Shown: positions 4,284 through 44,221, counted from the stretch's first letter. The stretch is DNA of 64,000 bases from an uncultured candidatus Brocadiaceae bacterium (GCA_964434535.1 CAYSWA010000003.1:20985-84984), one strand, 5' to 3'. The notes: generated by a model from the sequence alone, not told the origin. Made by a program: numbers and translations.

Positions 4284-5717
4284 TCATCGCCGGCGCCCTT
4301 TCGCCGCCTTCAGGACCTTTGCCTCGGCCCGCTCGCGGTAGAAGGGGTCGAGCGGATAGCAGCCCGAGACCAGGCCCATGCGCGGCGCGCTGGTGCAGTC
4401 GCCGAAGGTGCGGCAGATGCGCCGCCGCTCGAGCGCCCGGCCGGCCAGCACGTCGGCCGGCAGCTCGGGGTAGGAGAGCATCATCCGGCCGAGGCCGGCA
4501 AAGTCCGCCATGCCCCTACGCACCGCCGCCTGGGCCACGTGCGGCAGCCACTCCTGCAGGTAGGTGTAGCCCGAGCCGACAATCGTCAGGGCGGGCAAGC
4601 GCGCCTTGAGCGCTGCGGTAAGCGCGACGTGCCGCGCCACGCCGAGGAGCGGGTCCTCCGGCGGCGGGTAGCCGTCGCTCGGCGGATAGAGGGCCGGGCG
4701 GGTAAGGTGCGGATTGTAGTAGGGGCTGCCGAGCGAGACGTTCACGAGGCGCACGCCGAGCTCCTCCAGCAGGCCGAGCAGGCGGAGCGGCTCCTCCAGC
4801 GCGGGCCGGAGCGGATCGTCCGGGTCCGCCCCGAAGGCGTAGGGATAGGGGACCGGGAAATCGACCGGCGCGCCCGTGCCGTCCGGGCCGGCGGCGAACG
4901 GCGGCGTGTCGAAGGCGCTCAGCCGCACGCCCACGCGCAGCCCCGGCACGCGCCGCCGGATGCCCTCCACGATCATGCGCAGGAACCGCGTGCGGTTCCC
5001 GAAGCTCCCGCCGAAGGGGCCGGGCCGCTCGTGCGCGGTGAGCAGCTCGTGCGCGAGGTAGCCGTGGCAGTGCTTGACGTCCACGAAGGCGAAGCCGGCT
5101 CCCGCGGCGAGGGCCGCCGCTTCGACGAAGCGCCCGGCGATGCCTTCGATCTCGGGGTCGGTCAGCACGGGCAGCTCGGGCGGCGCGCCGAACCGCGCGT
5201 CGAGCAGCGGGTGGCGGTAGGCGATGCGGGGCGCGGGGCGGCCGTCGGGCCGCGCGAAGCGGCCGGAGTGGGTGAGCTGGAGTCCGACGAGCAGGTCGTC
5301 CGTCCGCCCGCATGCCTCCCGGTGGGCCTCGACGAGCAGCTCGCGCAGCTCGGCGAGGGCCGGCAGGTTCGCCTCGCTGATGAGGAGCTGGCGGGGGTTC
5401 GCGCGGCCCTCGCGCATGACGGCGACGGCCTCGCCGCCCCAGACGAGCTTGGCGCCGCTGCGGCCGAAGTTGCGCCATCGGCGGCGCGTCAGCTCGCTCG
5501 GCCGCCCGTCCCGGGTGCCGTCCCAGCCCTCCATCGGTTGCACGCAGAAGCGGTTGCCGACGACGGGGCCGTCGGCGAGCTCCAGCGGCCGCGCGAGCGG
5601 CGCGGCGGGGCCGGACTCGATCTCGTCGTCGACCGGCAGTTCGAGGCCGAGGGAGGCCGCGTAGTCCCGCAGCTCCTCGGCGCTCTCGATGCTGGCCAGG
5701 CGGCGGCAGTCGGGCAT
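4284..5717 (-). CDS. NADH:flavin oxidoreductase, Old Yellow Enzyme family
   Basis: [19 protein letters not shown] and TIM-barrel OYE motifs. Confidence 0.85.
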
Positions 5718-5730
5718 GGCGGTAGCGGGG

Positions 5731-6516
5731 TCAGAGCCGGCACAGGTGGAAGCCGCCGTCCACGTCGATCACCTCGCCGGTCGAGAACGGGAGGCGGCCT
5801 TCGGCGATGGCGGCGACGGCCAGGGCGACCTCCCGCGGCTCGCCCCAGCGCGGGATCGGGGTCAGGCCGCCGGCGATCAGGGCCTCGTAACGCTCGGCGA
5901 CGGGCGCCGTCATGTCGGTGCGGATGAGGCCGGGGCGGACCTCGTAGACGTTGATCCCGTGGCCGGCCAGGCGCGCCGCGAAGAGCCGCGTCACCATGGC
6001 GAGGCCGGCCTTCGAGATGCAGTACTCGGGGCGGTCGGGGCTGGCGGCGTAGGCGCTGACGGAGCCGACGTTGACGATGTCCGCCCGCTCGATCGCCCCC
6101 GACTCGATCAGCCCGATCATGGCGCGGGCGACCCGCTGGGTGAGGAAGAAGGCGCCCTTCAGGTTCACGGCCACGATGCGGTCGAAGGACTCCTCGCTCG
6201 TCTCGAGCAGGTCGAGGCGCCGGGCGGGGGCGGCGCCGGCGTTGTTGACGAGCATGTCGATGCGGCCCAGCGCCCCCAGGGCCTCCCCGACCAGCCGCTC
6301 GCGGTCGGCGGCGCCGGCCACGTCGGCCCGGAGGGTCAGCGCCTCCCCGCCGGCCTGCTCCACCAGGCGGGCGGCCTCGGCGGCGGCCTCCTCGTCGGCC
6401 CGGTAGTTGACGGCCACCCGCCATCCCCGCTCGCCGAGCGCCACGGCGATCGCCCGCCCGATCCCCCGCCCGGCGCCCGTCACCAGCGCGACCCGCGCTT
6501 CGTCGTCAGCTCTCAT
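5731..6516 (-). CDS. SDR-family oxidoreductase (3-oxoacyl-ACP reductase-like)
   Basis: [12 protein letters not shown] Rossmann motif, NNAG, YxxxK (YCISKAG). Confidence 0.85.
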
Positions 6517-8990: not shown

Positions 8991-9051
8991 GGAGCCGAAA
9001 CCCGGGACTTTCGGCGGCCAACCGGACGCGACGGGGCGCGTCCCTCCGAAG
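8991..9051. repeat. dispersed intergenic repeat copy B (module 1 forward + module 2 reverse)
   Basis: GGAGCCGAAACCCGGGACTTTCGG followed by GGGGCGCGTCCCTCCGAAG. In the divergent manD/mutY intergenic region. Confidence 0.6.
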
Positions 9052-30284: not shown

Positions 30285-30308
30285 GCCGGCCCGAGCCGAG
30301 CCGCCGCC

Positions 30309-32597
30309 ATGGCTGAGACGACCCAGGAGCCCGCCGCCGAGCGCCGCCGCATCACCGTGCGGGGCCGCGTGCAGGGCGTCGGCTTCCGCCCCACGCTCTA
30401 TCGCGAGCTGGTGCGGCGCGGCTGCGCCGGCAGCATCCGCAACACCCCCGAAGGGGTCGCGCTCGAGGTCGAGGCGCCGCCCGACGTGCTGGACGAGGTC
30501 GTGCGCGAGTTCCCCCGGCTCGTGCCCGAGCGGGCGCGCGTGGACGAGCTGATCGTCGAGCAGGTCGAGCCCCGGGGCGAGCGGGGCTTCCGCATCGAAC
30601 GCAGCGACGCGGACGGGCGAAGCCTGCTGCCGATCCCGCCCGACCTGGCCCTCTGCGGCGAATGCGCCGCCGAGCTGGACCGGCCCGGCTGCCGGCGCGA
30701 GGGCTACCCCTTCAACACCTGCACCGACTGCGGGCCGCGCTTCACCATCGCCCGGCGCGTGCCGTTCGATCGGGAGACGAACGCCATGGCGGCCTTCCCT
30801 CCGTGCGAGGACTGCGCCCGCGAGTACGCCGAGCCGGCCGAGCGCCGCTTCCACGCGCAGACCGTCTCCTGCCCCGCCTGCGGCCCCTCGCTCGCCTTCC
30901 TCACCCCCCAGGGCGAAGAGGTGGACGAGCCGCTCCGGACCGCCCGGCGCATGCTGCGCGAGGGGCGGATCCTGGCCGTCAAGGGCATCGGCGGCTTCCA
31001 CCTCGCCTGCGACGCCACGCGCCCCGCGCCCGTCGCCCTGCTGCGCGAGCGGAAGCGACGGCCCGCCAGGCCGTTTGCGATCATGGCGGTCGATATCGAG
31101 GCGTGCCGGCGGCTCGCCGAGGTGAGCGCCGTCGAAGAGGAGCTGCTGACCTCGCCGCAGGCGCCGATCGTCCTGCTGCGCAGGCGGCCCGGTTGCCCCG
31201 TCGCCGAGGGCGTCGCGCCGGGCCTGGCGCACCTCGGCGTCATGCTGCCCTACACGCCGCTGCACCGGCTGCTCCTCGCCGGCGAGATGCCCGTCGCGCT
31301 GGTCATGACGAGCTGCAACCGGCGCGAGGAGCCGATCGCCGTCAGCCACGAGCAGGTGCTCGGGGAGCTGACCGATCTCGTGGACGGCGTGCTGACCCAC
31401 GACCGGGAGATTGTGAACCGCTGCGACGACTCGCTGGTGGCGGCCTTCGACGGGCTGCCCCTGCCGATGCGGCGCTCGCGGGGCTACGTGCCCGAACCCC
31501 TCATCCTTGAGCGCCCCGGGCCGCCCGTGCTCGCCACCGGCGGGATGATGAAGAACGCGTTCGCGCTGACCAGCGGCCGGCGCGTCTTCCTCTCCCAGCA
31601 CATCGGCGACGTCTCGGACGCCGACAACGCCGCCTACTTCGCGCGCTCCGTGCGGGAGTTCTCGCGGCTGCTGCGCGTGGAGCCGGAGGTCCTCGCCTGC
31701 GACATGCACCCGGACTACCCCACGACGGCCTTCGCCCGTGAGATGGCCGAGCGACGCGGGCTGCCGCTCCTCCAGGTGCAGCAGCACCACGCCCATGTCG
31801 TCTCGTGCCTCGCCGAGAACGGCCGCGAGGGGCCGGCCATCGGCGTGAGCTGGGACGGGGCGGGCTACGGCGAGGACGGCGCCGTCTGGGGCGGCGAGTT
31901 CATGGTCGCCGACCGGCGCGGCTACCGGCGGCGCTATCACCTGGCCTACGTGCCGATGCCCGGCGGCGAGCAGGCCGTCCTCAACCCCGTGCGCATGGCC
32001 GCCTCGCACCTGGCCTGCGCGCTCGGTCCGCAGGAGGCGCTGCGGCGGCTCGGCCCCGCGATGCGGGAAGGCGAGTGCGATCTCGCCCTGCGGGTCATGG
32101 GGCGGGAAGCGTTCTCCCCGCCCACCTCCAGCGCCGGGCGGCTCTTCGACGCCGTCGCCGCCCTGCTCGGCGTGCGCAGGCGCGCCACCTACGACGGCCA
32201 GCCGGCCGCCGAGCTCGAGGCGCACTGCGCGCCGGAGGCCGAAGGCGCCTACCCCGTTGCCTTCGAGGGCGACGAGATATCGGTAGCGCCGACCTGGGCG
32301 GCGATATGCGGGGACCTGGATAGGGGCGAGGAGCCCGGCGCCGTCGCCATGCGGTTCCACCGCGCGATGGCCGGGGTCATCCTGGAGGGCTGCCGTCGGC
32401 TGCGGGAGGAGGAGGGCCTCGGCGTCGTCGCCCTCTCCGGCGGCGTGATGCAGAACCGCACGCTGCTGGCCCTGGCCGTGCCGGCGCTGCGGGCGGAAGG
32501 GTTCGAGGTGCTGCTTCAGAGCCGCGTGCCGCCGAACGACGGGGGCCTCTGCCTGGGCCAGGCCGCCTGCGCCCTGGCGCGCCTGGCCGCGCCGTAG
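30309..32597 (+). CDS. hypF: [NiFe]-hydrogenase maturation carbamoyltransferase HypF
   Basis: Acylphosphatase (VRGRVQGVGFR), two CxxC zinc-finger pairs, YrdC-like (ILAVKGIGGFHLACDA) and Kae1-like C-terminal domains. 762 aa. Confidence 0.9.
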   Translation: MAETTQEPAAERRRITVRGRVQGVGFRPTLYRELVRRGCAGSIRNTPEGVALEVEAPPDVLDEVVREFPRLVPERARVDELIVEQVEPRGERGFRIERSDADGRSLLPIPPDLALCGECAAELDRPGCRREGYPFNTCTDCGPRFTIARRVPFDRETNAMAAFPPCEDCAREYAEPAERRFHAQTVSCPACGPSLAFLTPQGEEVDEPLRTARRMLREGRILAVKGIGGFHLACDATRPAPVALLRERKRRPARPFAIMAVDIEACRRLAEVSAVEEELLTSPQAPIVLLRRRPGCPVAEGVAPGLAHLGVMLPYTPLHRLLLAGEMPVALVMTSCNRREEPIAVSHEQVLGELTDLVDGVLTHDREIVNRCDDSLVAAFDGLPLPMRRSRGYVPEPLILERPGPPVLATGGMMKNAFALTSGRRVFLSQHIGDVSDADNAAYFARSVREFSRLLRVEPEVLACDMHPDYPTTAFAREMAERRGLPLLQVQQHHAHVVSCLAENGREGPAIGVSWDGAGYGEDGAVWGGEFMVADRRGYRRRYHLAYVPMPGGEQAVLNPVRMAASHLACALGPQEALRRLGPAMREGECDLALRVMGREAFSPPTSSAGRLFDAVAALLGVRRRATYDGQPAAELEAHCAPEAEGAYPVAFEGDEISVAPTWAAICGDLDRGEEPGAVAMRFHRAMAGVILEGCRRLREEEGLGVVALSGGVMQNRTLLALAVPALRAEGFEVLLQSRVPPNDGGLCLGQAACALARLAAP

Positions 32598-32643
32598 CGG
32601 CGCACGGCGCTACCGGACGGCGCATCCGACTGGCCATTGTCCG

Positions 32644-32722
32644 CTGAAACTCCGGGACAGTCCCCTTCGGGATACAGTCCCGGTTTTCGGCTCCGACGCC
32701 GAAGGTGGAGGGACGCGCTCCG
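32644..32722. repeat. dispersed intergenic repeat copy C (module 1 reverse + module 2 forward)
   Basis: GAAACTCCGGGACAGTCCCCTTCGGGATACAGTCCCGGTTTTCGGCTCC followed by CGAAGGTGGAGGGACGCGCTCCGG. Between hypF and hypC. Confidence 0.6.
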
Positions 32723-38480: not shown

Positions 38481-40031
38481 ATGGCCACGCGACGGGCAAC
38501 CGAAAAAGACAGCAGTGCGGCTCCGTGCCTGACCGAAGCAGTTCACGCCGCAGGTCGTGATGCGGTTGCCCCGACCGGCCGGGGACAGAAGAAGGGCCTT
38601 GCGCAATACCTGACCCCTGCGCCCGTCGCGCGGCTGATGGCCGGCATGTTTGAGGAGCGTCGCTCGCGTGAGGTCTGTGTCTTCGACCCGGGCGCCGGCG
38701 CCGGCATCCTGACGGCGGCCGCCGTAGAGGCCGTCAGTCAGTGGACGAGTCCCCCTTCGCGGATCAGGGCTTCAGCCTTCGAGCTGGACGAGGACATGGC
38801 GCCCCGGATCCGCGATACGTTCCATCTCTGCGCCGAACACTGTCGCCGGCGGGCAATCGCCTTCACGGGAGAGCTGCATCAGGGCGACTTCCTGGAGAGG
38901 GCCTCTGCAGTGGTAGGCCGTCCCTTGTTCCAGCAGCGCCTGTCCCCGGCGGACATGGTGATCATGAACCCTCCCTTCCGCAAGATCCGCACCGATTCAC
39001 GGGAGCGCAGACTGCTGGAGAGCGTGGGGATCGAGACTTCGAACCTCTATTCTGGATTCGTGGCCCTGGCGATCCGCGCGCTCAGGCCGGGCGGCCAGTT
39101 GGTGTTCATCTCGCCACGCAGTTTCTGCAACGGGACGTACTTCCGGCAGTTCCGAGAGATGCTCTTGTGCCAGACGGCCCTGCGGCGCGTTCACCTCTTC
39201 GAGTCCCGCACGGAGGCGTTCCGGGACTACAGCGTGATCCAGGAGACAGTGGTGTTCCACGCGGTCAAGGGGGACTCGCCCGCCCCCGTGCGCATCACGT
39301 CAAGCCGGGGCGGGGAGGAAGACGAGATTACGTCGCGCCAGGTTGCCTTCGCAGAAGTGGTCCGGCCCGACGATCCCCGCAAGTTCATCCACCTGCCCAC
39401 CGATGAGGCCGGGCTGGAGGCCGGGCACAAGATACGGCTGCTGACACACTCGCTGCGGGATCTGGGCCTGCGGGTGTCCACGGGCCGCGTCGTGGCGTTT
39501 CGTGCGGCTGATCACCTTCTGGACAGTCGACAGCCCGGATCAGTGCCCTTGATACAGCCGGGTAACATCTGCTCTGGTCGCGTTGTCTGGCCTGACTACC
39601 GGCTGGGCAAACCTGCGGCGCTGGAGGCGAACGACGCCACGCGCGACCTTCTGGTGCCGGAGGGCACTTACGTCCTTGTGAGACGCTTCAGCGCCAAGGA
39701 GGAGCGCCGGCGGATCGTGGCAGGGGTCTACGAGTCCTGTGCCTGTCCCGGCTCCGCCGTTGCCTTCGAGAACCACCTCAACTACTACCACGCCCGCGGA
39801 GGCGGCCTGAACCCGGACCTCGCGCGCGGCCTCTCGGCCTTCCTGAATTCGACCGTGGTCGATCGGTACTTTCGGACCTTCAACGGTCATACCCAGGTCA
39901 ACGCTGCGGACCTACGTAGCTTGCGATACCCCTCGCTTGAGACGCTTGTGGCCCTCGGGCAACGTGTTGGTCCCAAGGAGATTGACCAGGGCGCCCTTGA
40001 CGCGGCAGTTGGGGAGGAGTGCTTTCTTTGA
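38481..40031 (+). CDS. gamma-class N6-adenine DNA methyltransferase (M.PstI/M.BsuBI-like) of a type II R-M system
   Basis: AQYLTPAPVARLM (motif X), VFDPGAGAGILT (motif I), MNPPF (motif IV). 516 aa. GC content visibly lower than the flanks. Confidence 0.8.
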   Translation: MATRRATEKDSSAAPCLTEAVHAAGRDAVAPTGRGQKKGLAQYLTPAPVARLMAGMFEERRSREVCVFDPGAGAGILTAAAVEAVSQWTSPPSRIRASAFELDEDMAPRIRDTFHLCAEHCRRRAIAFTGELHQGDFLERASAVVGRPLFQQRLSPADMVIMNPPFRKIRTDSRERRLLESVGIETSNLYSGFVALAIRALRPGGQLVFISPRSFCNGTYFRQFREMLLCQTALRRVHLFESRTEAFRDYSVIQETVVFHAVKGDSPAPVRITSSRGGEEDEITSRQVAFAEVVRPDDPRKFIHLPTDEAGLEAGHKIRLLTHSLRDLGLRVSTGRVVAFRAADHLLDSRQPGSVPLIQPGNICSGRVVWPDYRLGKPAALEANDATRDLLVPEGTYVLVRRFSAKEERRRIVAGVYESCACPGSAVAFENHLNYYHARGGGLNPDLARGLSAFLNSTVVDRYFRTFNGHTQVNAADLRSLRYPSLETLVALGQRVGPKEIDQGALDAAVGEECFL

Positions 40032-41005
40032 GTGAGCAAGGCCGACCGGCGGGGCCGAAGGGCGCCCGTGAGCGCATTCAAGAGGCCGTTGAGCTTCTGC
40101 GGGAACTCGGAATGCCTCCGGCCCAGCAGAACGAGCGCTCCGCCCTCGTCCTGCTGGCCCTTCTGGACCTGCGGCCGACCGACAGGTGGTCATCGGCGCG
40201 GCGGCCGATGAGGGGCGTGACCGAGATCATGCACTGGTTCGCAGAGCACTACGGCAGGGAGTATGCTCCGAATACCCGCGAGACGGTCCGACGCCATACG
40301 CTTCACCCCTTCCTGCAAGCCGGGTTCGTATTACAGAACCCCGACGAGCCGGATCGGCCTGTCAACAGCCCCAACACCGTCTATCAGATCAGTGAACCCC
40401 TTTACGATATTGTCATGAAGCGGGGTCGGCCAGGCTGGCCCCAGGCCCTTGAGGCTGCGCGCATGGAGCTGGGGTCATTGCGCGAAGCCTATGCCCGACG
40501 GCGCCAGGCGCACGGGGTTCCCGTGAAGACCGGCCGCGGCGCCGAACTGCGCCTCTCACCTGGTCCGCATAGTGAATTGATCAGGAGCATTGTCGAGGAG
40601 ATGTGTCCCCGCTTCATCCCCGGTGGTTCCTTGCTCTACGTCGGGGATACAGCCCGGAAGTTCGCCCATTTCGACGAGGAGGCCCTGCGGGCCTTGGGTG
40701 TTGTGCTTGGCGAGCATGGCAAGATGCCCGATGTCGTGGTCTACGATGAGGAGCGGGGCTGGCTGGTCCTGATCGAGGCTGTGACCAGCCATGGGCCGGT
40801 CGATCCGAAGCGCCGCGCGCAGCTGGCCGAGTTGTTCCAGGACGCCCGAGCCGGTCTGGTCTACGTCACGGCCTTCGCGAGCAGGTCCGCCGTGCGGGAG
40901 TACCTCTCCGAGATATCCTGGGAAACCGAGGTTTGGGTCGCCGATGCCCCCGGCCACATGATTCACTTCAATGGCGAACGCTTCCTCGGCCCATACGCTG
41001 ACTGA
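40019..41005 (+). CDS. type II restriction endonuclease, PstI/BsuBI-like (PD-(D/E)xK)
   Basis: 328 aa. Overlaps the MTase stop by 13 nt. Candidate catalytic core PDVVVYDEERGWLVLIEAVTSHGPVDPKRR. Size and gene order match the BsuBI/PstI pair; family assignment is from memory, not a search. Confidence 0.6.
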   Translation: MLSLSEQGRPAGPKGARERIQEAVELLRELGMPPAQQNERSALVLLALLDLRPTDRWSSARRPMRGVTEIMHWFAEHYGREYAPNTRETVRRHTLHPFLQAGFVLQNPDEPDRPVNSPNTVYQISEPLYDIVMKRGRPGWPQALEAARMELGSLREAYARRRQAHGVPVKTGRGAELRLSPGPHSELIRSIVEEMCPRFIPGGSLLYVGDTARKFAHFDEEALRALGVVLGEHGKMPDVVVYDEERGWLVLIEAVTSHGPVDPKRRAQLAELFQDARAGLVYVTAFASRSAVREYLSEISWETEVWVADAPGHMIHFNGERFLGPYAD

Positions 41006-41474: not shown

Positions 41475-42425
41475 TCAGATGAACCGGTCGCCCGGCTCGA
41501 CGTTGTAGCCGTTGACGAAGTCGGCGGCGCCCATGGCCCGGCTGCCGGCCGGCTTGATGCGGGTGATGCGCAGCAGGCCCTCGCCGGTCTGCACCAGCAC
41601 GCCGTCGGCGTCGGTGGCCACCACCTCGCCGGGCCTGGCGTCGGCGGCCGGTGCGCCGTCGGCCGTCTCGACCTTTAGCAGCGTCACGCGGCGCATCCCC
41701 TCGGCCGTCTGGAACTCGCAGTAGGCGCCGGGCCAGGGCGTAAGGCCGCGCACGTGGTTGCGGACACCCTCGGCCGGCAGCCCCCAGTTCAGCTTGCCGT
41801 CGGCCTTGCTGAGCTTGCGGGCGAAGAACGGCGTCTCGGCCGGCTGTTGCTCCTCGGGCACCTCCTCCCCGGCGTCCAGGCGGCCCAGCACGTCGACGAG
41901 GAGCCCGGCGCCGAGCCGGGCCAGCCGCTCCTCCAGCTGGCCGGCCGTCTCGTCCGGCTCGATCGCGACCTCACGTCGGGCGAGGACGGGGCCGGCGTCG
42001 AGCCTGGGCACGACGCGGATGACGCTCACGCCGGTGGTCCGCTCGCCCCGCATCAGCGCCCAGTTCACCGGCGCCGCGCCCCGGTAGGCGGGCAGCAGCG
42101 AGGCGTGCAGGTTCACCAACCCCCGGCCCGTCACGCCGAGCAGCTCCTCGGAGAGGATAGCCCCGAAGGCGACCACCACGCCGAGCTCTGCCCGGAGGGC
42201 GCGCAGCCGGGCGACCGACTCGACCGCGTTCACGTCCTCGGGCTGGCGCACCGGCAGGCCGAGCTCGAAAGCGGCCGACTTGACGGCGGTCGGCTGGGGC
42301 CGCCGGCCGCGCCCGCTCGGGCGGTCGGGGCGGGTCACCACGGCGGCGATCCGGTGGCCGGCCGCGTGGAGCGCCCGCAGGCTCGGCACGGCGAAGTCCG
42401 GGCTCCCGAAGAACAGCAGCCTCAT
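41475..42425 (-). CDS. fmt: methionyl-tRNA formyltransferase
   Basis: MRLLFFGSPDFAVPSL, NLHASLLPAYRGAAP (SLLP motif), C-terminal domain. Confidence 0.9.
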   Translation of the reverse strand: MRLLFFGSPDFAVPSLRALHAAGHRIAAVVTRPDRPSGRGRRPQPTAVKSAAFELGLPVRQPEDVNAVESVARLRALRAELGVVVAFGAILSEELLGVTGRGLVNLHASLLPAYRGAAPVNWALMRGERTTGVSVIRVVPRLDAGPVLARREVAIEPDETAGQLEERLARLGAGLLVDVLGRLDAGEEVPEEQQPAETPFFARKLSKADGKLNWGLPAEGVRNHVRGLTPWPGAYCEFQTAEGMRRVTLLKVETADGAPAADARPGEVVATDADGVLVQTGEGLLRITRIKPAGSRAMGAADFVNGYNVEPGDRFI

Positions 42426-42454
42426 GCGCGCCCCTTGTCTGGCTGCGGCGCCGC

Positions 42455-42964
42455 TCAGCGCTCGGCCCCTGCGGCTTCCTGCTCCAGTCGGCGGAGCTGA
42501 TCGCGGAGCGCCAGGCGGCCGGCCGGCGGGATCTTGTCGATGATCAGGACGCCGTTGAGGTGGTCCAGCTCATGCTGCCAGGCGCAGGCGGCGAGCTCTT
42601 CGGCCTCGATCTCCACCCGTTCGCCCCCGAGCGTGTAGGCCACCAGCGCCACCTTCTCGGCTCGCGGCACATTGACCTGGACGCCGGGCAGGCTCAGGCA
42701 GCCTTCCTCGTGTTCCAGGTGGCCTTCGCGGGCGATGATGATCGGGTTGACGAAGACGCGCTGGCCCTCGTGCCTCAGCGCCGGGTCGAGCGTTACCACA
42801 CGGCGCGACCAGCCGATCTGCGCGGCGGCCAGCCCGAGCCCGGCGGACGCATACATGAAGTCCAGCATCTCGCGGGCGCGCTCGGCGACCTCGTCGTCGA
42901 TCTCGCGCACCGGTTTGCAGCGCTTGCGCAGCACCTGCGCCGGATAGCGCTTCAGCTCCATCAT
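42455..42964 (-). CDS. def: peptide deformylase
   Basis: GLGLAAAQIG, EGCLSLPG, HELDHLNG motifs. Start at MMELKRY. Confidence 0.9.
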   Translation of the reverse strand: MMELKRYPAQVLRKRCKPVREIDDEVAERAREMLDFMYASAGLGLAAAQIGWSRRVVTLDPALRHEGQRVFVNPIIIAREGHLEHEEGCLSLPGVQVNVPRAEKVALVAYTLGGERVEIEAEELAACAWQHELDHLNGVLIIDKIPPAGRLALRDQLRRLEQEAAGAER

Positions 42965-43035
42965 TCCGTCTCCGCGCGTCTGAAACGGGTCGAACAGCAC
43001 AGCCTAACCGAAACCACGGCCGGTAGCGAGCCCCC

Positions 43036-43109
43036 GGAAAATGGGGACAGTTCCCATTTTCAGCAAGAAAGGCACTTATGGCTCAAAATGGGAACTGTCC
43101 CCATTTTCG
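43036..43109. repeat. composite inverted repeat (two 24-bp copies AAAATGGGGACAGTTCCCATTTTC in inverted orientation, 23-bp spacer); MITE/REP-like
   Basis: Copy 2 is the exact reverse complement of copy 1, and each copy is itself palindromic. AT-rich. It supplies the last 11 codons and the stop of the Fe-ADH gene and sits 35 nt from the def start. Confidence 0.7.
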
Positions 43110-44221
43110 GTGAGGGCGGCGAGGGTCTGGCGCACGTAGGCCTCGTCGACCGGCACGGGGTTCGCCTTCGAGGAGCCGCTCCCGGTCGCGTAGTCCAGGA
43201 TGCGCTCCTCCCACTCGGGCGAGGGGTAAGGCCCGAGCTGCCGCCGCAGCCCCAGCCGCTCCTGGAGCCGCCGGAAGGTCTCCAGCGGGTCGGCGCCGAT
43301 CGCGTCGGCGAGCGCCCGGTACTTGTCCGGCGCGGCCTCCGCGTTCCGCTTCAGCACCGGCGGCATCAGCGCGGCGCAGACGAGGCCGTGGGGCAGCCCG
43401 TAGCAGAGCCCGACGGGGTGGGCCAGGCCGTGCACGGCCCCGAGCCGCGCGCTGCCGAGCGCGAGCCCGGCCATGTAGCTGCCCTCGGAGACGGCGGCCC
43501 GGGCCCCGATGTCGCCGCCGTCCTCGTAGGCGTCGGCCAGGTGCCCGGCGATCAGGCGGGCGGCCGCCAGCGAGAGCGCTTCGGTGGTGGGGATGGCGTG
43601 GACGGAGAAGAGCGACTCGACGGCCTGCACCAGCGCGTCCATGCCGGCGGCGGCCGTCACCTGCGGCGGGCAGCTCACCGTCAGCTCGGGGTCGGTGATC
43701 GAGACGGTGGGCATGACGCCCTCGGCGCGGATGCTCCTTTTCAGGTGCGTCCAGGGGTTGGTGATGACGGCGTTGCGGGTGACCTCGGCGCCGGTGCCGG
43801 CGGTGGTGGCGACGGCGACGTGGGGTAGCCCGGCGCCGGTGACCTTACGGGCGCCGTGGTAGTCGGCCGTGGGCGCCTGCTCGCGGGCGAGCGCGGCGGC
43901 CGCCTTGCCGGCGTCGATGGCGCTGCCGCCGCCGGCCTCGACCACCAGGTCGCAGCCGGCCTCCCGCAGGGCCTCGCGGGCGGCGTCCACCGTCTCCACC
44001 TCCGGCTCGGGGGGCACGCGTTCGAAGCGCTCCACCGCCACCCCGGCGTCCTCCAGCAGGGCTACCAGCCGGTCGGTGATGCCGACGCTGCGCAGCGCGT
44101 GGCGCCCGGTCACCAGCAGCGCGCGGGAGCCGAGCCGCGCGGCCTCCTTGCCCAGGAGCTCGATGGTGCCGAGGCCGACGTAGGAGGTGCCCGGGAAGCT
44201 CAGGCGCAGCGAGCGGCTCAT
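43076..44221 (-). CDS. iron-containing alcohol dehydrogenase
   Basis: [20 protein letters not shown] and GLPHG motifs of Fe-ADH. Start at MSRSLRL (382 aa); the longer upstream ORF is an R/G-rich extension. Confidence 0.8.

Follow-up and report, generated by a model that had tools for sequence, protein, structure and literature searches.

A REPIN-like hairpin doublet, probably a mobile-element footprint, at the stop codon of an alcohol dehydrogenase gene in a candidatus Brocadiaceae bacterium

The gene for an iron-dependent alcohol dehydrogenase (ADH) in an uncultured candidatus Brocadiaceae bacterium ends inside a short palindromic element, and we asked what this element is and how the gene came to end there. 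The element lies in a stretch of 64,000 nucleotides (GCA_964434535.1 CAYSWA010000003.1:20985-84984), referred to here as the window, which was analyzed together with two short contigs from the same organism. An initial annotation made from the sequence alone had offered three roles for it: a mobile repeat resembling a miniature inverted-repeat transposable element (MITE) or a repetitive extragenic palindromic (REP) sequence, a bidirectional terminator, and a binding site for a regulator. Our results favor the first of these. We consider it likely, with a probability of roughly 0.7, that the element is a REPIN-like dimer of a hairpin repeat associated with TIRYTs (genes resembling those of REP-associated tyrosine transposases, or RAYTs, that have terminal inverted repeats), and that it reached the ADH stop codon as a non-autonomous mobile element.

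The whole doublet occupies positions 43037-43108 and measures 72 bp (24 + 24 + 24 nt). Its left arm (43037-43060, GAAAATGGGGACAGTTCCCATTTT) is one palindromic repeat copy and contains the half-site GGGGACAG, and its right arm (43085-43108, AAAATGGGAACTGTCCCCATTTTC) is the exact reverse complement of the left. A spacer of 24 nt (43061-43084) lies between these exactly complementary arms and forms the loop region of a long hairpin. The initial annotation had described two exact inverted 24-mers around a 23-bp spacer. Such a pair exists, but the 24-mer that was quoted (AAAATGGGGACAGTTCCCATTTTC, at 43038-43061 on the plus strand) is one base out of register, its reverse complement at 43084-43107 carrying one terminal mismatch, and the spacer is 24 nt rather than 23. 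None of 100 dinucleotide shuffles of the window reproduced any match to the inverted repeat; the palindrome pair is real and far beyond chance. Each arm is in turn a near-palindrome, as had been noticed, in which half-sites of 11-12 nt that are 91-92% complementary flank one central base and include one non-complementary pair. The centres of the two palindromes are 47 bp apart, and complementarity between the arms reaches 33 nt at 91%. The doublet is AT-rich for its surroundings, as annotated, with a GC content of 0.50 compared with a mean of 0.72 for the window.

The ADH gene runs from 43076 to 44221 on the minus strand and encodes a protein of 381 aa (PF00465/PF25137) that is 100% identical to an NCBI protein of the same length (P0001). 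Read on the minus strand, the gene ends ACC GAA AAT GGG GAC AGT TCC CAT TTT GAG CCA TAA. The TAA stop codon, at 43076-43078, lies within the spacer, which also supplies the E and P codons before it, and the minus strand of the right arm encodes ENGDSSHF. Translation of the minus strand thus bears out the earlier assignment of the last 11 residues and the stop codon of the ADH to the doublet, within which the last 10 or so of these codons and the stop are found.

The doublet is predicted to fold as a single long hairpin from either strand, as RNA or as single-stranded DNA. The folding analysis that the initial annotation had suggested yields a strong RNA hairpin on both strands, at -59.9 kcal/mol (z = -9.2) and -59.7 kcal/mol (z = -7.6). 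As single-stranded DNA, the doublet folds with -30 and -31.5 kcal/mol (z = -9.6 and -10.8), and the arms folded separately reach only -8.2 and -5.7 kcal/mol. A comparison with Rfam found nothing at gathering thresholds across the whole window, and an E-value search near the doublet gave sub-threshold models of miRNA hairpins only.

To place the arms among known sequences, we scanned GTDB r232, with one genome per species, using the pattern AAATGGGRACWGTYCCCATTT. The counts that follow rest on the matches listed in that scan and are lower bounds, and sampling across genomes is uneven. The scan returned a family palindrome, AAATGGGGAC[A/T]GTCCCCATTT, in at least 118 stretches in at least 64 assemblies from about 15 phyla, where by our estimate about 0.3-2 stretches would be expected by chance in random sequence. 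The phyla among the matches listed are Pseudomonadota (alpha, beta and gamma), Acidobacteriota, Actinomycetota, Bacillota, Bacteroidota, Caldisericota, Desulfobacterota, Elusimicrobiota, Gemmatimonadota, Myxococcota, Nitrospirota, Patescibacteria, Planctomycetota, Spirochaetota and Verrucomicrobiota, and the GC content of the matched loci ranges from 0.31 to 0.75. Nearly all of the listed copies are perfect palindromes of this form. About 25 assemblies have two or more loci among the matches listed, and one metagenome-assembled genome (MAG) of the Usitatibacteraceae has at least 15. There is hardly any variation in the 13-bp centre, GGGGACWGTCCCC. On either side of it the sequence is not conserved but co-varies, the first three flanking pairs being complementary in 59%, 51% and 40% of copies, respectively. 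The same loci also hold relatives of the palindrome with other A/T-rich feet, such as AAAAGGGGACTGTCCCCTTTT. A literature search with the 13-mer and 17-mer strings matched only an unrelated paper on a human antisense sequence.

Each arm of the window doublet matches the family palindrome at 20 of 21 positions, and the left arm (43037-43060) differs by one mismatch from the family core AAATGGGGACAGTCCCCATTT. The departures from the family consensus are mirrored, with C>T in one arm and G>A in the other, such that pairing between the arms stays perfect while the hairpin that each arm could form by itself gains a mismatch. This is the pattern expected if the doublet hairpin is the maintained unit (cf. 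PMC3116915).

Doublets are common in the family. Among the matches listed, 24 pairs of copies lie no more than 130 nt apart, and 17 of the 24 have the inverted orientation of the window doublet (central A...central T), compared with one in the orientation T...A. The spacings that recur are 26-28, 47-49, 57 and 65 nt. Family copies also show a preference for the ends of genes: of 147 copies, 64% have the stop codon of an open reading frame (ORF) of at least 120 aa no more than 45 nt away, compared with 16% of random positions, and in several cases another gene ends inside a family copy. An early impression that the orientation of the central A/T is tied to neighboring genes, with the A form after stop codons, failed on counting.

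Several loci show arrangements other than the simple doublet. In the Usitatibacteraceae MAG JBGAQP01 (loci L017, L021, L030, L043, L047, L050, L052, L094, L108, L112 and L116), doublets spaced by 48-49 or 65 nt have a further conserved module inside them, TGTAAC(A)...(T)GTTACA, with non-conserved linkers between, a mosaic that recalls the BIMEs of E. coli. In a Vicinamibacterales MAG (JBFWVR01, L092:5731-6295), palindromes in the same orientation alternate in tandem with an 18-nt linker, CTTGAACGATGCCAGAAG, unlike the usual inverted doublets. A cluster in a Spirochaetia MAG (L107:5980-7540) is made up of differing palindromes with GAC(A/T)GTC-like cores, such as TTTGGCAGACAGTGTCTGCCAAA and TGGTACCTGTCACCA, and there a 95-nt unit is repeated 1.4 kb apart around a pRiA4b-ORF3-like gene, beside a HEPN/MNT-like pair.

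Nearly all of the family matches come from MAGs; the family had no match in the viral contigs of IMG/VR and none in E. coli genomes, and the plasmids of PLSDB gave a single 20-nt match. Such a distribution might suggest an artefact of assembly or a palindrome formed by chance, but we find this hardly credible. The shuffled sequences gave no match, and the identical doublet sequence is present in an independent Logan assembly of the same sample (SRR7048218, L001). Isolate genomes carry the family as well, namely those of Gordonibacter An230 and 28C, Novosphingobium NDB2Meth1 and Peribacillus kribbensis DSM 17871. Furthermore, the MAGs derive, judging by their names, from many projects and assembly pipelines, and the copies are internal to long contigs and have differing flanks.

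The family has one recurrent neighbor. In a Steroidobacter locus (L088), the palindrome brackets an ORF for a 245-aa Y1 transposase (PF01797, E = 1.6e-14), with one copy 48 nt upstream and further copies that overlap and follow the 3' end of the gene. The best NCBIfam match of this protein, just under the cutoff, is to 'REP-associated tyrosine transposase' (NF047646), a model for which the proteins adjacent to the family score 65-79 bits. When all ORFs in the matched loci were searched for homologues, at first with the L088 protein and then with a profile, exactly five more of the listed loci proved to contain one: L089 (Caldisericota), L063 (Novosphingobium), L034, L094 (Usitatibacteraceae) and L011 (Gemmatimonadaceae). 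In all five, copies of the palindrome or close variants of it adjoin or overlap the transposase gene, those that flank the gene in L011 being variants. By our estimate for a single-copy gene in 118 random 8-kb pieces, about 0.2 such loci would be expected by chance, compared with six among the at least 118 listed. All-against-all clustering of the ORFs within 2.5 kb of these loci found no recurrent neighbor family except the Y1 transposase, and one small cluster, drawn from L063, L088, L089 and L094, is the transposase itself. Thus, the arms belong to a dispersed, multi-copy, multi-phylum family whose members flank RAYT-like Y1 genes in other genomes, in agreement with the MITE/REP-like role that the initial annotation had listed.

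The six transposases are 25-44% identical to the first sequence of their alignment, and the four that are complete are 208-245 aa long. They share the motifs NH[IFV]H, WQ or FQ (WD in one), RY[VI]ExN[PA] and W-x-SS. Among solved structures, E. coli TnpA-REP is the nearest relative (4ER8, E = 2e-9) and ISDra2 TnpA the next (E = 2e-5). We also ran the association in the reverse direction, by searching metagenome contigs with the protein profile, and obtained 567 relatives. The gene is bracketed by an inverted repeat of at least 9 nt in 59 of the 61 kept loci with both flanks, and most of these repeats have an A-rich foot followed by GGGGAC(A)N..., as in AAATGGGGACATTCCCGAT in locus L124. Among bracketing arms of 12 nt or more (n = 58), 31% contain GGGGWSAS, compared with 0.45% of controls, and 79% contain a relaxed form of it, compared with 3.2% of controls.

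These observations bring the family close to a type of element that has already been described. Di Nocera, De Gregorio and Rocco (2013, BMC Genomics 14:522; PMC3733652) defined TIRtrons as RAYT-like genes (TIRYTs) with terminal inverted repeats. Many of the repeats share the sequence GGGGWSAS, and some are self-complementary and form moderately abundant families, as dimers or clusters. TIRtrons occur in species that lack GTAG-type REPs, and many repeat-flanked tyrosine transposase genes were found in the planctomycete R. baltica (PMC3733652). Quentin (2018; PMC6006769) placed 20 of 26 TIRYTs in subclass 2.1 of TnpA-Y1, which equals Group 1 of Bertels, and gave the repeat consensus as GGGG[AT][CG]A[CG]. 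Proteins of that subclass carry the motifs NHVH or NH[YF]H, W[EQ] or FQ, and YIELNP or Y[IV]HLNP, have SS after the core and a median length of 238 aa, and their patchy distribution is suggestive of horizontal transfer (PMC6006769). Group 1 is the most widely distributed group, and its flanking 16-mers are only modestly repeated (Bertels et al. 2017). By inspection of their motifs, rather than by the hidden Markov models and tree of Quentin, the six proteins are consistent with the signature of subclass 2.1 / Group 1.

As in TIRtrons, family copies in other genomes flank RAYT-like Y1 genes (at the six loci) and occur dispersed and as dimers, and the half-site GGGGACAG, read on the plus strand of the left arm and the minus strand of the right arm, fits GGGGWSAS exactly. 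Unlike the TIRtron repeats, the family is a near-perfect palindrome of 21-27 bp with the same core in about 15 phyla, and the window copy is a solo dimer that overlaps coding sequence and has no transposase gene within 64 kb. The doublet also resembles a REPIN (Bertels and Rainey 2011, PLoS Genet 7:e1002132) in its inverted pair of repeats around a short spacer, its one long hairpin and its mirrored changes; the extragenic or gene-end position and the single-copy Y1 transposase gene flanked by family members are further points of likeness. It differs from REPINs in that the family lacks a GTAG foot and lies beside genes whose products resemble Group 1 / subclass 2.1 and not Groups 2/3. Taken together, the six transposase loci, the fit to GGGGWSAS, the doublet architecture and the lack of a GTAG foot led us to file the element as a REPIN-like dimer of the TIRYT type and not as a canonical REP. 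It is thus a new example of an element type that is already known.

The canonical alternatives share part of this evidence. A REP or REPIN of a GTAG-type RAYT of Group 2/3 would have a doublet architecture identical to that seen here, and a MITE mobilized by a DDE transposase would also be small and AT-rich, with inverted ends. The hairpin foot in the window is, however, (CCG)AAAAT, with no GT[AG]G, and feet are A-rich across the family. The proteins associated with the family, at 208-245 aa and with the motifs NH[IFV]H / WQ / Y[VI]ExNP, are unlike those of subclasses 2.2 and 2.5. As for a DDE-type MITE, which would be expected to leave a target-site duplication, no direct repeat flanks 43037/43108 (left flank ...GCCCCCG, right flank GGTGAGG...), so that the check for such a duplication suggested in the initial annotation came out negative, and no DDE transposase was seen beside members of the family. 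We therefore regard these canonical origins, taken together, as improbable.

We compared the ADH with 120 homologues listed by a protein search and, for the first 70 of these, looked at the last 45 residues. Judging by the names attached to the nearest of them, the bacterium is probably a planctomycete. The homologues, the nearest of which is 74% identical to the window ADH, have in common the block ...ANPxPVDExYVRxVLxxV, after which mostly 2-6 variable residues lead to the end. The window ADH has 11 residues beyond the conserved block. Most homologues are 371-376 aa long, compared with 381 aa, and they stop 5-9 residues sooner, so the window tail differs from those of its orthologues. The gene order mtnA, dCMP deaminase, ADH, def, fmt, DUF116 is kept in relatives. 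In the nearest of these (L121), the syntenic spacer between ADH and def is 120 bp of unrelated sequence from which the doublet is absent. A block upstream of def, GGTTTC.GGTAGGCTGT, is common to the window, L121 and a second relative (L122); it starts about 25 nt past the doublet, and the doublet therefore occupies nearly all of the non-conserved spacer. The homologues that end sooner and the relatives' spacers without the element fit the insertion into the 3' end of the ADH gene that the initial annotation had envisaged. The simplest reading would be that the doublet inserted at or just before the original ADH stop codon, and the change was probably tolerated because the tail is naturally variable.

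Elsewhere in the family, the palindrome repeatedly supplies the C-termini of ORFs (..NGD[CS]PHF.., ..MGTVPI..), as at L088:792-832, L089:7426-7460, L034:7897-7913 and L017:7489-7520, and the ORFs that end in a copy include RAYT-like genes themselves and a GluQRS-like gene. The window ADH is in this respect typical for the family. In-frame repeats are also known from the Rickettsia palindromic elements and from the intragenic REPs of Di Nocera (2013) and Quentin (2018), where a palindrome is likewise tolerated in an ORF and contributes residues; the window element differs in its place, since it takes over the stop codon and the very end of the protein and does not sit in an internal loop.

The second relative, L122 (GCA_964346565.1, contig CAYFVS010000437.1), has a 1.7-kb insertion (4492-6199) in the same spacer between ADH and def. 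Within it lie an IS200-type Y1 transposase gene (5309-5758; PF01797, E = 8e-26) and, at 5967-6089, an apparent C-terminal remnant of an Eco57I/type IIG methylase. The insertion is probably unrelated to the palindrome, and mobile DNA seems to have entered the ADH-def spacer more than once. Used as a probe, the L122 transposase gave no match beside family members because it is too distant from the RAYT-like proteins.

Lying upstream of def, where the ADH reading frame ends, the doublet could also be a native terminator or attenuator, or an mRNA-stabilizing 3' hairpin, with an origin in situ between the ADH operon and def-fmt. The very stable RNA fold and the enrichment of the family at gene ends would suit such a role, and copies in low-GC genomes (L002, L022, L048 and L081) are framed by A-runs and T-runs like bidirectional terminators. 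The initial annotation had proposed a bidirectional terminator on the premise that def and ADH are convergent. This premise is wrong: the peptide deformylase gene def (42455 to about 42964) lies downstream of ADH on the same minus strand, and the two genes are co-directional. No U-tract follows the hairpin; CCGGGGGC follows instead, and the U-run lies inside the stem. A promoter and terminator scan of 42300-43800 found no sites. The syntenic spacers of relatives are unrelated in sequence, and an origin in place would produce neither an invariant 21-mer in at least 64 assemblies from about 15 phyla nor flanking of transposase genes. The bidirectional terminator is therefore set aside, and an origin as a native 3' hairpin appears unlikely, although a secondary effect of the element on the transcript is possible. 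As a putative role of this kind, the 3' hairpin may stabilize the ADH mRNA or attenuate read-through into def, which would not be why the sequence exists.

We also considered whether the doublet might be a tandem operator, with two palindromic sites for a dimeric regulator of def or ADH. Two near-perfect palindromes with centres 47 bp apart, just upstream of the conserved def-upstream block, could look like this, and conservation in the family is sequence-specific rather than purely structural. The palindrome stands, however, beside unrelated genes in at least 64 assemblies, with the Y1 transposase as the sole recurrent neighbor. Moreover, some genomes have tens of copies, half of the supposed operator lies within ADH coding sequence, and the upstream regions of orthologous def genes lack the element. 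We consider this last of the annotated roles very improbable. A def promoter that overlaps the element was tried as well: L121 and L122 share TTTSCC-17-TA(G/A)(G/C)CT, and since the window lacks the -35-like part we make no promoter claim. Resemblances to the sigma-32 -10 box (CCCCATnT), LexA, matS, NBS, CIRCE, SECIS and attC were likewise rejected, as they gave no sequence match or left unexplained a multi-copy family without gene linkage outside Proteobacteria.

The window also contains repeats of a second kind. A two-unit hairpin at 32640-32693 (CCGGGACAGTCCCC TTC GGGATACAGTCCCGG, with CCGAAAACC feet) lies 43 nt past the stop codon of the gene at 30285-32597, an intergenic copy lies at 1026-1075 (GCCGAAACCCGGGACTGTATCCC ...), and a truncated copy (GCCGAAACCCGGGAC TTTCGGC) lies at 8992-9015 in a divergent intergenic region. 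Their pattern is GCCGAAA[A/C]CCGGGACTGTATCCC, and the repeat at 32640-32693 is similar to one that flanks a TIRYT-like gene of metagenomic origin in locus L174 (GGAAAACCGGGGACAGACGGGAA). This repeat is probably a second family within the same superfamily, and the genome of the window may host two related repeat families. The initial annotation had the core of the doublet shared with repeats at 1025, 8991 and 32645. Sharing is partial and weaker than had been stated: the sequence at 32654 has GGGACAGTCCCC, that at 1038 has GGGACTGTATCCC, and that at 8996 shares only CCGAAACCCGGGAC, and the core GGGACAGTNCCC by itself is not enriched (3 matches compared with 2.0 expected).

Several points weigh against a REPIN-like dimer of the TIRYT type. 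The 64-kb window holds only one doublet of the exact family, besides the three copies of the related family, and it holds no Y1 transposase gene. The GT[AG]G foot that defines canonical REPs is absent from the doublet, and Quentin (2018) found no REP-like sequences beside subclass 2.1 genes (PMC6006769). The strict palindrome occurs in only one of 80 metagenomic transposase loci, and the link between this palindrome variant and the enzyme clade is drawn from six loci, with proteins that are 25-44% identical to the first sequence of their alignment and were placed by their motifs. Neither a transposition intermediate nor a presence/absence polymorphism was seen, and the nearest ADH orthologue, at 74% identity, is too distant to reveal the empty site, the exact point of insertion or its timing.

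With these points in mind, a mobile REPIN-like dimer might have reached the ADH gene as follows. Both E. coli TnpA-REP, which acts on REP/BIME sequences (Ton-Hoang 2012; Messing 2012, PDB 4ER8), and the TnpA of IS200/IS605 act on hairpins of about 20-25 nt in single-stranded DNA, and the transposases adjacent to the family are homologous to them (PF01797). The family, which is known from sequence alone, differs from their substrates in where it is conserved, which is at the loop and the upper stem and not at the foot. By analogy, each copy, or the whole doublet, would fold into a hairpin when the DNA is single-stranded, and a trans-acting Y1 transposase, presumably encoded elsewhere in the genome, would recognize, cut and rejoin the hairpin. 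Cutting and rejoining would spread new copies to gene ends and intergenic sites, with the doublet as the replicating unit. One such copy would have landed at the ADH stop codon or a few bases before it, and the original stop codon would have been removed. Translation would now pass through the right arm into the spacer, adding about 5-9 residues to a naturally variable tail, and a very stable 3' hairpin on the ADH transcript, just before the upstream region of def, would be a side effect.

A broader proposal, which we put forward tentatively and hold to be somewhat less probable than not, is that RAYT-like enzymes of one clade of Group 1 / subclass 2.1, the largest and most widespread RAYT group and one reported to lack REPs, have the AAATGGGGAC[A/T]GTCCCCATTT hairpin as their cognate substrate. 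While the enzymes drifted apart to 25-44% identity, their site would have stayed constant in about 15 phyla, and the copies would make up a horizontally spreading, pan-bacterial REPIN-like population, of which the window doublet would be a member that rewrote the C-terminus of a protein.

The genes around the doublet show one further difference from a relative. Downstream of def come fmt, the DUF116 gene and then a BsuBI/PstI-type restriction-modification pair, which consists of an Eco57I-like N6-methylase and a BsuBI/PstI-type restriction endonuclease at 38481-41005, directly after def-fmt-DUF116. In L121 a zinc-ribbon protein is found in place of this pair. In Peribacillus kribbensis DSM 17871, one of the isolates that carry the family, two copies are present (L049:3566-3586 and L097:2006-2026). 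One lies 5 nt past the hisIE stop codon and abuts a -10-like box, TGTTATAAT, and a ribosome-binding site follows the other at a distance of about 10 nt, which makes the pair suitable for studying possible effects on transcription.

For this locus, an odd AT-rich palindrome and a long ADH tail would both be explained as the footprint of a mobile element, and no new regulatory device is required. For the family, a precise 21-bp palindrome is tied to RAYT-like genes that resemble Group 1 / subclass 2.1, a group whose DNA partners have been unclear, and in many uncultivated lineages this palindrome is arranged as REPIN-like doublets and in mosaic arrays. Since Novosphingobium sp. NDB2Meth1, Peribacillus kribbensis DSM 17871 and Gordonibacter spp. 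are cultured carriers, the biochemistry of the palindrome and its putative role at transcript 3' ends are directly testable.

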